Origin: an uncultured Thermoplasmata archaeon
GTDB taxonomy: Archaea; Thermoplasmatota; Thermoplasmata; RBG-16-68-12
DNA: 64,000 nt
NCBI GenBank assembly: GCA_963768855.1
Contig: CAVYJM010000006.1
Location: forward strand, 480,001 to 544,000
Direction of reading: 5' to 3'
Shown here: one piece after another, positions 7,979-10,663 of the stretch
Position numbering within the stretch: position 1 is the first letter of the stretch
Layout of the letters: each line of letters begins with the position of its first letter
Notes under the pieces: generated by a model
Database searches by the model: none
Seen by the model: only the letters and a program-made list of their open reading frames with translations
Told to the model about the DNA's origin: nothing
Position numbers and translations under genes: made by a program

Positions 7979-9033
7979 GCGAGGCGGAGTCGCTCCGTGC
8001 CTTCGTCACCGCGCTCCTCGAGGACGTCGGCACGGACGTGCGGGACGACGGCACGTTCCTCTGGTTGCGGGTCCCCAACGCGATCCAGGCGAGCCTGGAC
8101 CTACCCGCCCAGGCCTGCCTCACGTTCGACCCCGATCGCGCCGGCGAGTTCGATGCGGAGCTCGTCGCGCCGGGGAGCTACCTCCTGGAGAAACTCCTCG
8201 GACTGGCCACGCGCCGGGGACGGTGGGATGTGGCGCGGGTCGCGACGCCGCCCGAGGATTGGGTCCTGGAGGCCTTGGGAGATTCTCCGGGGATCGGGCT
8301 CGACGGCGCACGAGACGTCGTCCCCTCGCAGCCGGAGCAGCTGCTCTTCCTGTTCGCCTTCCGGACCGCCCTCACGTCGGACGAGAAGCGCGAGGGGTTC
8401 CATCTGATCGCGGTCACGCCGGACGGATCGGAGGGATGGACGGTCCCCTGGCCGTTGCAGGAACAGGGGTTGGTCCCCGCGATCCTTCCCGGGTTCTCCC
8501 CGGACCTCGGATCCGCCTACCGGACGGCCCAGGAGATCCTCGGACGCGGAATCCGGGAGGACATGGAGATCTTCCGCCATTCCTGTCTCACTTCCCTCGA
8601 AGAGGAGGTCCGCCGCATCTTCCGGTACTTCGATGGGACCGTGGCCGAGGTGAAGGAGGCCGCCCCGTCCGGAGCGCAGGACGTCGTCCGCGCCATCGAG
8701 GCCGAGCGCGATCGTCGCCTCGCGGAGGCGCTCGAACGGTTCGAGCCCCACGCGGTCGCCTCCCTTTGCAGCGTGCGCATCCTCCTCGTGCCGACCGTCC
8801 ACGTGACGTTGGACCAGGGGACGGGCCCCTTTGCAGTGACCATCGACGCGCTCACACGCCATGTCCGAGGGCTTCCCGCCTCGATCAAGGAAGCCGGACC
8901 CGTTCCACTTCCAGCGGATCCGCGGTCGGGTACTCCTCGACGACGAACGACGGCCGGCCGAGCGCCGGGGCGATCTCCTCGAGGATCCACGGGGCGATCT
9001 CGATCCGCCGCCTCGCGGCGTCCAGGGTCATGA
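7975..9033 (+). CDS. Hypothetical partner of the SNF2 ATPase (YqhG-like)
   Basis: ATGA overlap with the SNF2 stop, GGAGG SD, coding-like codon usage to about 8880; last ~50 codons overlap the convergent radical SAM gene. Confidence 0.7.
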   Translation: MSEAESLRAFVTALLEDVGTDVRDDGTFLWLRVPNAIQASLDLPAQACLTFDPDRAGEFDAELVAPGSYLLEKLLGLATRRGRWDVARVATPPEDWVLEALGDSPGIGLDGARDVVPSQPEQLLFLFAFRTALTSDEKREGFHLIAVTPDGSEGWTVPWPLQEQGLVPAILPGFSPDLGSAYRTAQEILGRGIREDMEIFRHSCLTSLEEEVRRIFRYFDGTVAEVKEAAPSGAQDVVRAIEAERDRRLAEALERFEPHAVASLCSVRILLVPTVHVTLDQGTGPFAVTIDALTRHVRGLPASIKEAGPVPLPADPRSGTPRRRTTAGRAPGRSPRGSTGRSRSAASRRPGS

Positions 9034-9955
9034 GCTTCTTCGGGACGCGGTGGCGCTTCGCGAGGTCCCGCAGGAGATCGTCCAGCCCGTCGCCCTCGAT
9101 CACGCCCTTGACGAGGGTGCCATCCTCCGTGACCACATCCCAGGGCTGCGCGATGTTTTCGGCGCGCCGTTTGATCCGCGTGCGGAGCTGCCACGCGTCC
9201 TTGTAGCCGCTCGTGCAGTAGTGGACCGTCGTCGTCCAGGAGCGCTCGAGGAGGCGGACGGCGACCTGGTCCGCCCCCTTCACGCCGTACGCGAGCTCGT
9301 GCTTGACCTCGTACCCGCGCGTCTTCATCCTCGCAAAGTTCGCGTCGCTGTACTCCATCTCGTCCAGGTTGACGAAGGCGATCCCCTCGGACTCCGCCCA
9401 TTCGATCAGGGTCACGAGGTCGCCCTCGCGCTCCGGGATCAGGGGCACCTCGAGGCCCACGGTCATCCCGAGCTCCTTGGAGAGGCGCACCGCGGCGGGG
9501 AACCCCATCGCCTGCGGATGGGACCAGAGCCCCGGCGGGACGTGGAAGCGGATCTCGTCGAGGCCCGCGGCGGCCAGCTTGCGGATCTTCCCCGGGTCCG
9601 TGGACATCGTGTAGAGGTGCGTGTGGAACTGCGGGCCGAACTCCTTCTTCAGGAGCTGGATGTAGTGGGCCGTGCGGTCGACGGCCTCGAGCGGGTCGCC
9701 GCCGGTGATCCCCGCACCCTTCGCGCGGATCGCCCGCGCCTCCTCGATCACGTCGGCATCGGACTCGACGCGCTTCTCGTCCGCGAAGACAACGTCCCGA
9801 TACATCTTCTCGTCCGAGACAGGGCAGTAGAAGCAGTGGAACGAGCAGAGGCCCGTGACGAAGAGGACCATCTTGGCCCCTTCCGTGCACTGGACGCAGC
9901 CCACGGGCAGCGTGCCTTGGATCAGGGAACCGCAGGGCCGCTCGGCCACACTCAT
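8885..9955 (-). CDS. Radical SAM protein, archaeal COG2108-like, function unknown
   Basis: CSFHCFYC (CxxxCxxC), ITGGDPL, EIRFH; upstream TTTATC TATA box. Confidence 0.9.
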   Translation of the reverse strand: MSVAERPCGSLIQGTLPVGCVQCTEGAKMVLFVTGLCSFHCFYCPVSDEKMYRDVVFADEKRVESDADVIEEARAIRAKGAGITGGDPLEAVDRTAHYIQLLKKEFGPQFHTHLYTMSTDPGKIRKLAAAGLDEIRFHVPPGLWSHPQAMGFPAAVRLSKELGMTVGLEVPLIPEREGDLVTLIEWAESEGIAFVNLDEMEYSDANFARMKTRGYEVKHELAYGVKGADQVAVRLLERSWTTTVHYCTSGYKDAWQLRTRIKRRAENIAQPWDVVTEDGTLVKGVIEGDGLDDLLRDLAKRHRVPKKLMTLDAARRRIEIAPWILEEIAPALGRPSFVVEEYPTADPLEVERVRLP

Positions 9956-10031
9956 GGAGCGCGACCATTTCGGCGAGGGGAGATAAAGGTTCGCAGAGCG
10001 GCTGCCGCGCGGGAAGACCGCCCCTTCCGCG

Positions 10032-10051
10032 CATACCTCTAAGCAGAGGTA
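10032..10051. repeat. Palindromic direct repeat, copy 1 (CATACCTCT-AAGC-AGAGGTA)
   Basis: 19/20 identical to 10294-10313; self-complementary arms; contains the stop codon of the 85-aa ORF. Confidence 0.9.
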
Positions 10052-10296
10052 CGCGCGGCCTGTGCGATGGCGGCCTCCGCGGCCCGCCGACGCCGTCCGA
10101 AATCCTGCTCCGCGCGCCGGTGGTAGGCGGCCATCCTGCGGAGGAGCTCCTGCCGCGCCCGCTCGGAGTCGATGCGTCCCACGTAGTCCTCCCTCCGCCG
10201 CGAGTGATCGTCCTCCCGCTCGTAGTGCCAGAAGTACCAGTACCTCCGTCCGGCGAAATCACGGACGCGGGCGCCGCACCCGATCTCCATCTTCAT
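10039..10296 (-). CDS. 85-aa putative DNA-binding protein resembling the SSV1-type integrase N-terminal domain
   Basis: RxxxGRxYxYxxxYE...ExYVG pattern followed by a basic helix; bounded by two palindromic repeats. Confidence 0.65.
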   Translation of the reverse strand: MKMEIGCGARVRDFAGRRYWYFWHYEREDDHSRRREDYVGRIDSERARQELLRRMAAYHRRAEQDFGRRRRAAEAAIAQAARTSA

Positions 10297-10315
10297 ACCT
10301 CTAAGTAGAGGTATG
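10294..10315. repeat. Palindromic direct repeat, copy 2 (CATACCTCT-AAGT-AGAGGTATG)
   Basis: Perfect 9-bp inverted arms with a 4-bp spacer; contains the start codon of the 85-aa ORF. Confidence 0.9.
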
Positions 10316-10366
10316 GCCCGGATAGAGAAGTCCTTTCCCGGGGGAGGTCTCCGAAACTACTCGGCC

Positions 10367-10663
10367 TCACACCGGCCGCTTGCACGTCGAGCAGACGAGC
10401 CGGCAGTCCCTCTTGCATTCCTGGCACACGCCGTGCAGGAACTCTTCTCGGACGGGGGCGTGGTGGCAGTCGCTCACGGCGGTCACGAGGCGTCCGCAGT
10501 AGCGGCACAGGTGCTGCACGGGCCGTTTCTTCGCGACATACCGCTGATACGCCATCAGGATCGCGAGGACGAGGACGAGGAGACCGATGATGATCGCGAC
10601 GGCGAAGCACTGGAGGCTTCCCTCGACCGCCTGGTAGGGGAGGGAGGCCCAGGGGACGCCCAC
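10367..10663 (-). CDS. Small membrane-anchored Cys-rich (zinc-binding) protein
   Basis: One TM segment (FAVAIIIGLLVLVLAILMAY), then CRYC, CHH, CQEC, CxxxCxxC. Confidence 0.75.
   Translation of the reverse strand: MGVPWASLPYQAVEGSLQCFAVAIIIGLLVLVLAILMAYQRYVAKKRPVQHLCRYCGRLVTAVSDCHHAPVREEFLHGVCQECKRDCRLVCSTCKRPV

Follow-up and report, generated by a model that had tools for sequence, protein, structure and literature searches.

Autoregulated small DNA-binding proteins, such as the RHH repressors of the CopG/Arc type and the type II antitoxins, combine a small protein with a palindromic site at its own 5' end. Each paralogue goes with a different site that matches it; the arms comprise 7-10 bp, and the half-site centres lie about one helical turn apart. 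In the ParB/parS and MatP/matS systems a small protein goes together with a handful to a few dozen strictly conserved, dispersed palindromes, which are conserved between species. Integron cassettes with attC are short ORFs bounded by a palindromic element, and filled as well as empty alleles occur. For the REP/RAYT elements (Y1 HUH) of bacteria a layout has been described (PMC2817692) in which a gene is flanked by palindromes that are also dispersed, often between convergent genes, and separate pairs coexist in one genome. A search of the literature on archaeal genes flanked by palindromes yielded only papers on REP/RAYT and CRISPR.

Traits of each of these systems recur in a small archaeal gene that is bracketed by two copies of a palindrome. 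It lies in the window, i.e. the whole stretch of 64,000 nucleotides from an uncultured Thermoplasmata archaeon that was analysed, together with the following features:

8885 to 9955, minus strand: downstream neighbour, gene of a radical SAM protein (Pfam PF04055, E 5e-11)
10034 to 10051, minus strand: 3' palindrome, on the coding strand TACCTCTGCTTAGAGGTA, carrying the last codons T-S-A and the TAG stop
10039 to 10290, minus strand: small gene of 83 aa (MEIGCGARVRDF...RTSA), defined by the ORF list, the conserved start and the homologues
10296 to 10313, minus strand: 5' palindrome, on the coding strand TACCTCTACTTAGAGGTA, with arms extending to 9 bp at 10294-10315
10314 to 10362, minus strand: conserved leader, a motif common to nearly all cassettes
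10367 to 10663, minus strand: upstream neighbour, gene of a 98-aa membrane protein with Cys-rich (CxxC) motifs, taken from the ORF list

The palindromes belong to two direct repeats, CATACCTCTAAGCAGAGGTA at 10032-10051 and CATACCTCTAAGTAGAGGTATG at 10294-10315, which lie 262 bp apart and are identical in 19 of 20 positions. Both contain the 18-bp core TACCTCT-N4-AGAGGTA (10034-10051 and 10296-10313), and copy 2 (10294-10315) is a perfect 9-4-9 palindrome, exactly as the preliminary description of this DNA had read it. The core greatly exceeds chance expectation, with four matches (two sites on both strands) where 0.01 were expected from 100 shuffles. Genome-wide, 7 sites were detected, compared with 1 for the reversed control.

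The minus-strand ORF (10296..10039, 85 codons) has its ATG inside copy 2 and its TAG inside copy 1, and it had been proposed that the gene spans the distance from palindrome to palindrome. This holds for the stop but not for the start: among 49 homologous cassettes, only 12 have an in-frame ATG within the palindrome, while in 25 it is in another frame and 12 have none. Instead, a conserved start ATG/GTG-GAR-ATY-GGN-TGY (MEIGCG) is always found 5-8 nt past GAGGT in these cassettes, corresponding here to the third codon of the 85-codon ORF at position 10290. Since the MEIGCG start is conserved and the ATG in the palindrome is not, the real gene comprises 10290..10039 and encodes 83 aa; public gene calls for the homologues give 81-83 aa. 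The right arm GAGGT (10301-10297) of the 5' palindrome is Shine-Dalgarno-like (SD) and lies 6 nt before the start codon, and SD-like words peak at the same distance from starts genome-wide. Judged by the substitution pattern among its homologues (median dN/dS 0.16; dS about 1, i.e. saturated synonymous sites), the small ORF is a real gene.

In the leader, a GTTTC box (10357-10353, coding strand), a candidate TATA/promoter element, is followed by ACCTCCCCCGGGAAAGGAC (10348-10330) and about 15 variable nt. Homology among the six copies of genome G011 begins at the leader, not at the palindrome, and the conserved, duplicated unit reaches about 48 nt upstream of the 5' palindrome. We are inclined, by a little, to regard the gene unit of about 330 bp as self-contained: a leader, which probably includes the promoter, is followed by the 5' site, the ORF and finally the 3' site. 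The gene of the 98-aa membrane protein, which had no significant match in Pfam and other family libraries, stops about 10 nt before the leader and lies upstream of the radical SAM gene in relatives both with and without the cassette. Orthologues of the radical SAM gene are present in 37 of the 38 genomes of the genus. A TATA-like box of its own (CCTTTATC, coding strand 9989-9982) precedes the gene, with the 3' palindrome 44 nt upstream of it. This box is conserved in all three situations, with the cassette, with a solo site (a single palindrome) and with neither.

Missing conservation of the palindromes around homologues had been named as an outcome that would speak against the preliminary description. 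In fact both copies are in register in 49 of 50 cassettes, which come from about 25 species of one Thermoplasmata genus. The 3' palindrome keeps its position in the same proportion, with the stop codon inside it throughout the subfamily, and the 5' palindrome is the exact 18-mer in all but two of the 50, the exceptions being one inverted spacer and one single mismatch. Unlike the palindromes themselves, the spacer DNA beside them is not alignable among the cassettes. Near-invariant 18-mers despite saturated synonymous sites indicate that the palindromes are under strong selection. The asymmetric spacer ACTT has the same orientation in nearly all cassettes and at a locus behind a HAD-like gene, which a symmetric dimer on duplex DNA would not obviously require.

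Besides this cassette, the genome contains a second palindrome-bracketed paralogue and three solo palindromes. The palindrome families of G000, each paired with different paralogues, comprise 7, 12 and 3 copies. Every subfamily, also in other genera and families of the order, has its own different palindrome with a 4-nt spacer beside the gene. These palindromes are AT-rich and lie 20-65 nt before a conserved GCG motif near the ORF start, often also 19-63 nt after the ORF, and in some cases the upstream copy is present three times at intervals of about 62 nt. The subfamily palindromes include TCAACCTT-AAAC-AAGGTTGA and GTTATCGTT-ATTC-AACGATAAC, further ones TTGTGGAT-AAGT-ATCCACAA and GTTATCCTT-AGGT-AAGGATAAC. 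Across these subfamilies protein and palindrome evidently change together. Type-ii palindromes either precede TATA-like boxes by 14-60 nt or follow stops at a distance of 36-48 nt. The co-occurrence of type-ii palindrome and type-ii protein across the genus is muddled by uncertain orthology and site variants, and only the joint absence in G001 (89% complete), which has no family member and neither palindrome type, is clean. Per genome we counted 0 to 30 palindromes and 0 to 6 cassette copies, and more cassettes go along with more palindromes. One to six near-identical paralogues with one common site would be odd for a plain regulator.

The 83-aa protein, a member of an uncharacterised Thermoplasmata family, has 408 close homologues, all of them annotated as hypothetical and belonging to no Pfam family. 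By sequence, no informative match was obtained in Pfam, NCBIfam, PHROGs, PADLOC or PDB, and a tblastn search of phage and archaeal-virus records and plasmids found nothing. Likewise, 26 family members compared with Pfam at E up to 10 gave no family match. The protein had been called integrase-N-like for a resemblance to the N-terminal motif of the SSV1 integrase. None of the sequence searches bore this out, and no integrase family was matched, neither in Pfam, NCBIfam and PHROGs at E up to 1 nor with the 26 members at E up to 10. The fold agrees weakly with this impression, which probably corresponds to a three-stranded sheet packed on a helix. The AlphaFold2 model (pLDDT 93.6) consists of a basic and aromatic three-stranded antiparallel sheet (residues 5-39) and a long helix (43-81, 39 residues), and in its overall topology resembles the DNA-binding domains of the AP2 and integrase arm types. 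Structural matches were obtained with the AP2 domain SIP2 (6sy0_A, Z 5.6, rmsd 3.0, 55 residues aligned) and with P4-like integrase arm-type domains (3rmp_C, Z 4.0; 3jtz, Z 3.8). The best Z overall was 6.7, all matches are below the level for claiming a shared fold, and Foldseek against PDB gave nothing at E 0.001 or better. With AP2/ERF and the arm-type domains known from tyrosine integrases (N-termini of Tn916 and lambda Int; 3rmp and 3jtz) the model appears to share an Arg/Trp/Tyr-rich antiparallel sheet on a following helix. It differs in that no sequence similarity was found, in the length of the helix (39 residues) and in never being fused to a recombinase: all 76 representatives of the family, from a search of 1.8 billion representatives, are small proteins without such a fusion. 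Longer or fused forms, e.g. a 472-aa fusion with the radical SAM gene, were rejected as read-through or frameshift products. A homodimer prediction (score 0.21, mark 0.42) speaks neither for nor against a dimer.

Another short N-terminal sheet domain is Pfam DUF6788 (PF20586). Atlas look-alikes carrying it resemble the protein in features (0.87) and shape (TM 0.47-0.56), and some of them are fused to nucleotidyltransferases or Fic, whereas in the present protein the domain has no fusion partner and is combined with a long helix. The PF20586 model matched none of the six paralogues in the genome and none of the 26 family members (E up to 10), and our literature search found no paper naming DUF6788. 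We take this link via shape and features as a lead only.

Solo sites of the palindrome are mostly situated 33-55 nt behind stop codons, often midway between convergent genes; among 16 further solo sites, 14 lie 33-77 nt past a stop codon, and four occupy the middle of a convergent intergenic region. Positions behind stop codons are unusual for operators. The solo palindrome behind the HAD-like gene is kept with at most one mismatch in 16 of the 30 sampled loci, at an identity of the HAD protein of only 46-73%, and at this locus it is conserved genus-wide without any filled state. By this comparison, the solo palindromes are old, conserved elements. The HAD-like ORF ends in the solo palindrome only in G000, G013 and G014, and a general rule of a stop in the loop was rejected.

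Filled, solo and none states were observed at three or more orthologous loci. The locus upstream of the radical SAM gene was filled in 17 cases, clean solo in 2, degenerate in 2, occupied by a decayed pseudogene in 1 and without either in 5. Behind the DNA ligase gene, 7-10 loci are filled, 4 have neither state, and about 12 are solo, with the spacer in either orientation; the C12 locus is solo in G000 and filled in G011. In the solo alleles of G013 and G051 the leader and one palindrome are kept, which looks like an exact deletion between the two palindromes. The additional copies and empty single-copy sites that the preliminary description had suggested to look for in the genome and its relatives were thus found. 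Since empty alleles with a single palindrome exist, the ORF has, as these alleles show, evidently been lost through deletion between its two sites. At shallow depth, cassettes from the same locus group together and are inherited vertically, and G011 has 5-6 copies which are only 2-7% apart and occur in different contexts. Among contigs of wetland, sediment and soil metagenomes we detected relatives without the cassette between the radical SAM gene and the zinc-finger gene, where position 9945 is joined to 10362 or to 10367. A 10034-to-10296 junction did not occur in the metagenome contigs, which cannot show rare forms. One RNA-library contig (depth 2) covers 10066-10216, with no usable transcript ends.

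The different states of these loci could also stem from a mobile gene cassette, as had been suggested beforehand: a trans-acting recombinase would join the direct palindromes, thereby free the ORF and one palindrome as a circle of about 260 bp, and re-insert this circle at solo palindromes, comparable to an integron with dispersed attachment sites. The states at the radical SAM, DNA ligase and C12 loci fit this, as do the deletion-like solo sites of G013 and G051, the closely related G011 copies in different contexts, the varying copy number per genome and the several tyrosine recombinases encoded in the genome. As in integrons, empty and filled alleles differ exactly by the cassette (G013, G051; ligase locus), but simple deletion explains this too, and between direct repeats of 18-22 bp it needs no dedicated enzyme. 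Furthermore, the leader of about 48 nt belongs to the unit but would not be carried by a palindrome-to-palindrome exchange, and the freed circle would be without leader and probable promoter. The shallow clustering of same-locus copies by locus and the HAD-locus site, solo in the whole genus, point in the same direction, and the tight G011 clade can result from gene conversion. A recombinase acting in trans had been sought; in G000, PF00589 matched seven times, in one case below the curated cut-off, and none of these matches, which are spread over contigs C6, C7, C11, C12 and C18, adjoins a cassette. Compared with integron cassettes, the palindromes here are perfect and 18 bp long (versus 57-141 bp imperfect attC), the units are single and dispersed instead of forming arrays, no integrase is adjacent, and a conserved leader of their own (candidate promoter) lies outside the repeats. 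Because there is no linked recombinase, no excision junction in the contigs and a leader outside the palindromes, a recombining cassette becomes less likely, and we regard it as unlikely. A selfish or domesticated REP/RAYT-like system, in which the small protein mobilises or maintains its own dispersed palindromes as RAYT transposases do for bacterial REPs, appears still more remote and very improbable to us. It would agree with a gene whose flanking palindrome is also scattered outside genes, with several paralogue/palindrome pairs in one genome, with the preference for 3' ends and convergent intergenic space, and with copy numbers that differ strongly between species. However, the 83-aa protein was not recognised as an HUH/Y1 transposase in any search, and its model is a sheet with a helix. 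Palindromes number tens at most in a genome, not hundreds, the host is an archaeon, and the spacer indicates that the flanking copies are direct repeats. Solo sites at orthologous positions have long been stable, and no recent burst of solo copies was seen.

Alternatively it might be that the palindromes act as RNA. The 5' hairpin would then sequester the SD, the protein would possibly be an RNA-binding autorepressor, and 3' and solo hairpins would stabilise or end mRNAs. For such an RNA-level element speaks that the right arm forms a correctly spaced SD with the left arm as its complement, and that both hairpins are stable as RNA (5' copy: 9 bp, -16.3 kcal/mol, z -3.7; 3' copy: a longer 14-bp stem, -27.1 kcal/mol, z -5.6). 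The 14-bp stem was rejected as a conserved hairpin; at least 6 extra pairs occur in 2 of 49 cassettes only. The location of most solo sites shortly after stops and between convergent genes resembles that of bacterial REP hairpins. Read in the sense direction of the gene upstream, the loop is ACUU in the cassettes, at the HAD locus and in the three solo sites of G000 (ACAU at C12), and at the ligase locus each of the two spacer orientations is sense to one of two convergent genes. In addition, PC4 and Pur-alpha, which bind single-stranded nucleic acids, are among the weak fold look-alikes. Recognition of a hairpin of RNA or of single-stranded DNA, with the SD sequestered in the 9-bp stem at the 5' site, may take the place of duplex DNA recognition. 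On the other hand, among 34 sequences 7 of 9 stem pairs are invariant, and compensatory changes were not found. Covariation support for an RNA structure is therefore lacking, and it is the letters themselves that are conserved; RNAalifold predicted for these 34 leaders the palindrome stem alone, without covariation, a result that is uninformative for RNA versus DNA. The palindromes of other subfamilies upstream of TATA-like boxes would not be transcribed with the gene, the region 9800-10500 matched no Rfam family, and hairpins are not known to be required for archaeal termination. We consider an RNA-level element improbable, to the same degree as the recombining cassette.

Of the two readings offered in the preliminary description, the mobile cassette has thus lost ground and the autoregulated DNA-binding protein is favoured. 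The latter preference is based on the subfamily-specific palindromes, the old solo sites, the 48-nt leader within the unit, the vertical inheritance and the absence of a nearby recombinase. We lean slightly towards the view that the 83-aa protein is an undescribed sequence-specific nucleic-acid-binding protein with the cognate site TACCTCT-N4-AGAGGTA, which it would most likely bind as a dimer on duplex DNA. Invariant arms without compensatory changes would fit recognition of letters rather than shape. The cognate palindrome lies in the gene's own 5' region and changes with the protein subfamily, as is typical of an autoregulator, and the protein probably represses itself via this palindrome. 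It would shut off its own expression by occupying the 5' site, which lies downstream of the presumed transcription start and ahead of the start codon; this site embeds the ribosome-binding GAGGT and the 3' site the stop codon. The 3' and solo sites may be further targets, located at transcription-unit ends (as roadblock or insulator) or serving the regulation of neighbouring genes. In contrast to CopG/Arc-type repressors and antitoxins, the protein has no sequence or Pfam match and another predicted fold, a second site carries the stop codon, one to six gene copies share a site, and solo sites lie behind stops and not at promoters. From ParB/parS and MatP/matS it is set apart by the lack of homology and by sites that bracket the protein's own gene.

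A more far-reaching interpretation, which we put forward as rather doubtful, is a new archaeal system of genome punctuation or mobility. Either protein-bound palindromes about 40 nt past stops would form sequence-specific and bidirectional transcription-unit ends, the protein's own gene being insulated on both sides, or the protein would maintain or mobilise its own dispersed palindromes as an archaeal counterpart of REP/RAYT with an AP2-like fold in place of an HUH transposase, the bracketed gene being the master copy.

The filled, solo and empty alleles provide a clear natural example of the decay of a unit through deletion between its own sites. It is rare for a function to be assigned to a small archaeal protein that belongs to no Pfam family, and here the genome itself points to the ligand; the subfamily-specific pairs of protein and palindrome amount to a ready-made specificity code, which is accessible to simple binding assays. 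The placement of the sites is unusual, as they enclose the gene, overlap both its ribosome-binding site and its stop codon, and elsewhere lie at a regular distance behind the stops of unrelated genes. If they mark transcript ends or insulate neighbouring genes, this would bear on how archaeal transcription units are delimited.

The palindromes lie in the window as the preliminary description had read them, in a direct repeat 262 bp apart and with a perfect 9-4-9 palindrome as copy 2. The features are:

10294-10315, 5' palindrome (copy 2), CATACCTCTAAGTAGAGGTATG
10032-10051, 3' palindrome (copy 1), CATACCTCTAAGCAGAGGTA, read from the sequence
10290..10039, minus strand, small-protein gene, 83 aa
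10330-10357, leader of the unit
9982-9989, minus strand, box AACCTTTATC of the downstream radical SAM gene
10367-10663, minus strand, gene of a 98-aa protein (one membrane helix, several CxxC motifs)

The 18-bp core TACCTCT-N4-AGAGGTA (type i) is matched 4 times in the window, by two sites read on both strands, compared to 0.01 expected, which is beyond chance. In the whole source genome (G000; 2.87 Mb, 65% G+C, window C6:480001-544000) seven sites were detected, compared to one for the reversed control.

The minus-strand ORF extends from an ATG within copy 2 (10296) to a TAG within copy 1 (10039-10041). Its proposed stop in one palindrome was thereby confirmed, but not its proposed start in the other, as the conserved start lies 6 nt further on. 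This start is an ATG or GTG followed by GAR-ATY-GGN-TGY (MEIGCG), while, of 49 cassettes, only 12 have the palindrome-internal ATG in frame, 25 have it out of frame and 12 lack it. GAGGT in the right arm of the 5' palindrome is located 5-8 nt ahead of the conserved start, the same distance at which SD-like words are most frequent genome-wide. The conserved start and this spacing define the gene given in the list. Thus, the predicted ribosome-binding site is within the 5' palindrome and the stop codon within the 3' palindrome. Public data contain 408 close homologues of the protein, all annotated as hypothetical and nearly all of 81-83 aa, none of them with a Pfam domain; where a source is named, it is a metagenome bin of Thermoplasmata or "Methanobacteriota". 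When 1.8 billion representatives were searched exhaustively and without a profile, only 76 matches were obtained, all small proteins. With a median dN/dS of 0.16 at a dS of about 1 (48 cassette ORFs), the small gene is real on sequence grounds.

A paralogue (C17:81087-81335, 69% identical) exhibits the same two palindromes and the same spacers, and the family is present in 23 of 24 sampled genomes of the genus, with 3-11 matches each. Conservation of the palindromes around homologues, raised in the preliminary description, was found in 49 of 50 collected cassettes, which carry both in register. The identical 18-mer occurs in all but two of the 5' copies, with zero compensatory changes in the arms; the DNA between leader motif and palindrome is not alignable. 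As synonymous sites are saturated, such near-identity implies strong selection on the 18 letters themselves.

Four distant paralogues in G000 (34-43% identical) each adjoin palindromes other than type i, and a palindrome of its own also accompanies each member taken from further species, genera and families of the order:

AGTCAACCTT-AAAC-AAGGTTGACT, paralogues in G000, 12 copies (type ii)
GTTAACCTT-AAGT-AAGGTTGC, paralogues in G000
GTTATCGTT-ATTC-AACGATAAC, paralogues in G000, 3 copies
TGTTATGGTT-AAGT-AACCATAACA, other taxon
TTGTGGAT-AAGT-ATCCACAA, other taxon
GTTATCCTT-AGGT-AAGGATAAC, other taxon
AGTTAACCAT-GTTT-ATGGTTAACT, other taxon
CTACCTCT-AAAC-AGAGGTAG, other taxon

All follow a common plan of 7-10 bp arms, a 4-nt spacer and an AT-rich centre. 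They are usually situated 20-65 nt ahead of the GCG motif, with a second copy 19-63 nt past the stop; some members have three upstream copies at about 62 nt spacing. Palindromes number 0 to 30 per genome, more where cassettes are more numerous, and genome G001 (89% complete) lacks the small protein as well as either palindrome type. This matching by subfamily and the joint absence are the pattern of a protein with its cognate site. The type-ii palindrome (spacer GTTT/AAAC) has 0-18 copies in relatives (reversed control 0-1). In G000 it is found on C6, C10 and C11 (loci L057, L059, L161-L170) but not inside the window, and two copies adjoin distant paralogues. At L163 (G000:C10:6085-6150) a leader-like motif, CACTTTCGGGGACCTCTCCCGGG, directly follows a type-ii palindrome, with an ATG about 30 nt further on; the type-i-like leader may be a promoter type common to the family or genus.

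The AlphaFold2 model of the protein (pLDDT 93.6, 26-sequence alignment) comprises antiparallel strands 5-12, 15-26 and 29-39, in a sheet rich in Arg, Tyr and Trp, and one helix (43-81). Residues G4, C5, G6, W21, Y36 and G38 are invariant. Foldseek detected nothing significant in the PDB. An exhaustive structural aligner gave a best Z of 6.7 (Toxoplasma mitoribosomal protein) and 5.6 for the AP2 domain 6sy0_A (rmsd 3.0, 55 residues), and a second structural look gave 6.7 for PI-SceI and 4.0 and 3.8 for arm-type domains of P4-like integrases, all below the tool's level for claiming a shared fold. The description as integrase-N-like therefore applies to the general topology and not beyond it. Atlas look-alikes by features and shape include DUF6788 proteins; the DUF6788 Pfam model did not match the family.

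G000 has three solo palindromes, i.e. single copies without the ORF, each behind an unrelated gene:

solo site 1, flanked by a DNA ligase gene and a convergent transporter gene (EamA-like by eye)
solo site 2, behind a GST-like gene
solo site 3, behind a HAD-like gene

Among 16 further solo sites of four well-assembled relatives, 14 follow a stop codon at 33-77 nt, in most cases 33-55 nt, and four are centred between convergent genes (45/44, 43/38, 35/34 and 43/48 nt). The three G000 sites are placed alike. Six of the 12 type-ii palindromes in G000 lie 36-48 nt behind a stop, most others 14-60 nt upstream of TATA-like boxes. All these distances are approximate because gene calls were self-made from third-position G+C. 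The HAD-like gene of G000 (L004/L091, C17:54174-54878), G013 and G014 (L092, L096) extends into the solo palindrome, whose TAG serves as its stop codon, and thereby shares the ...TST tail of the small protein; in other genomes its stop is 36-47 nt earlier.

The conserved TATA-like box of the radical SAM gene (local consensus CTTTAT) follows the window's 3' palindrome at a distance of 44 nt. This box, 27 nt before the ATG, is strictly conserved in all relatives (L025-L054), which suggests a leaderless transcript or one with a short leader. The 98-aa protein, for which no family match was found, is encoded upstream of the radical SAM gene across the genus, cassette present or not. A public 472-aa protein (P0199) joins the small-protein N-terminus to a radical SAM domain and is probably the product of a read-through or frameshift that carries the cassette of some relative into the gene downstream.

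Taken together, the best-supported reading is that of a putative small site-specific binding protein, its own gene bracketed by its own sites. By occupying the 5' site, which overlaps the SD and lies downstream of the presumed promoter, it would exert negative autoregulation; the 3' and solo sites would be additional targets at transcription-unit borders. Binding, dimerisation, DNA or a hairpin as ligand and an effect on transcription are what we infer here. Three rival explanations keep real weight, namely RNA-level hairpins, a cassette that recombines and a system of REP/RAYT type, because the spacer is asymmetric with a conserved orientation, the small gene is multi-copy, and operators do not usually sit behind stop codons.

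Empty sites with one palindrome copy, looked for with a mobile cassette in mind, were found at several loci. Upstream of the radical SAM orthologue, 17 genomes have the full unit and five none of it; the leader and one palindrome are present in G013 and G051, the solo copies of G048 and G044 are degenerate, and the nearest relatives of G000 lack the ORF. In G041 (L033) a decayed pseudogene remains, with both palindromes degenerate, about 20 initial codons (MKVGCAARVRDFSGRR...) and an internal deletion, which shows that cassettes are lost through decay in addition to clean deletion. At the ligase locus a solo palindrome follows the ligase gene in G000 and some eleven further genomes, both spacer orientations being represented, and seven to ten genomes are filled; the C12 locus is solo in G000 and filled in G011. 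The ORF is thus repeatedly lost by deletion between the two palindromes. Several results nevertheless argue against mobility from one palindrome to another. Homology among the six G011 copies begins some 48 nt ahead of the 5' palindrome and ends 2-4 nt beyond the 3' palindrome, and the leader (RTTTCRC, then ACCYCCCCGGAAGG) is kept in nearly all cassettes. Small-protein clades are coherent by locus at shallow depth, and gene conversion can explain the within-genome clusters of G011, G002 and G008. No recombinase is linked to the cassettes. Of 30 sampled loci of the HAD-like gene, 16 retain the solo palindrome behind it and none is filled. Metagenome contigs, which cannot show rare forms, revealed no excision junction; relatives without the cassette were present among them. 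The G011 copies (L121-L126) are 2-7% apart with unrelated flanks, except that L123 and L126 have the right flank in common, too; this genome has 30 palindromes, and its fragmented assembly (220 contigs, 5% contamination) means that some copies may reflect strain mixture.

The family has no model in Pfam, NCBIfam, PHROG or PADLOC, and a literature search found no paper on it. That a regulator has palindromic sites of its own is a well-known principle. New are the small-protein family itself, a bracket in which both the stop codon and the predicted SD are embedded, the regular distance at which sites follow stop codons, and the occurrence of a bracketed gene as filled, solo and empty alleles.
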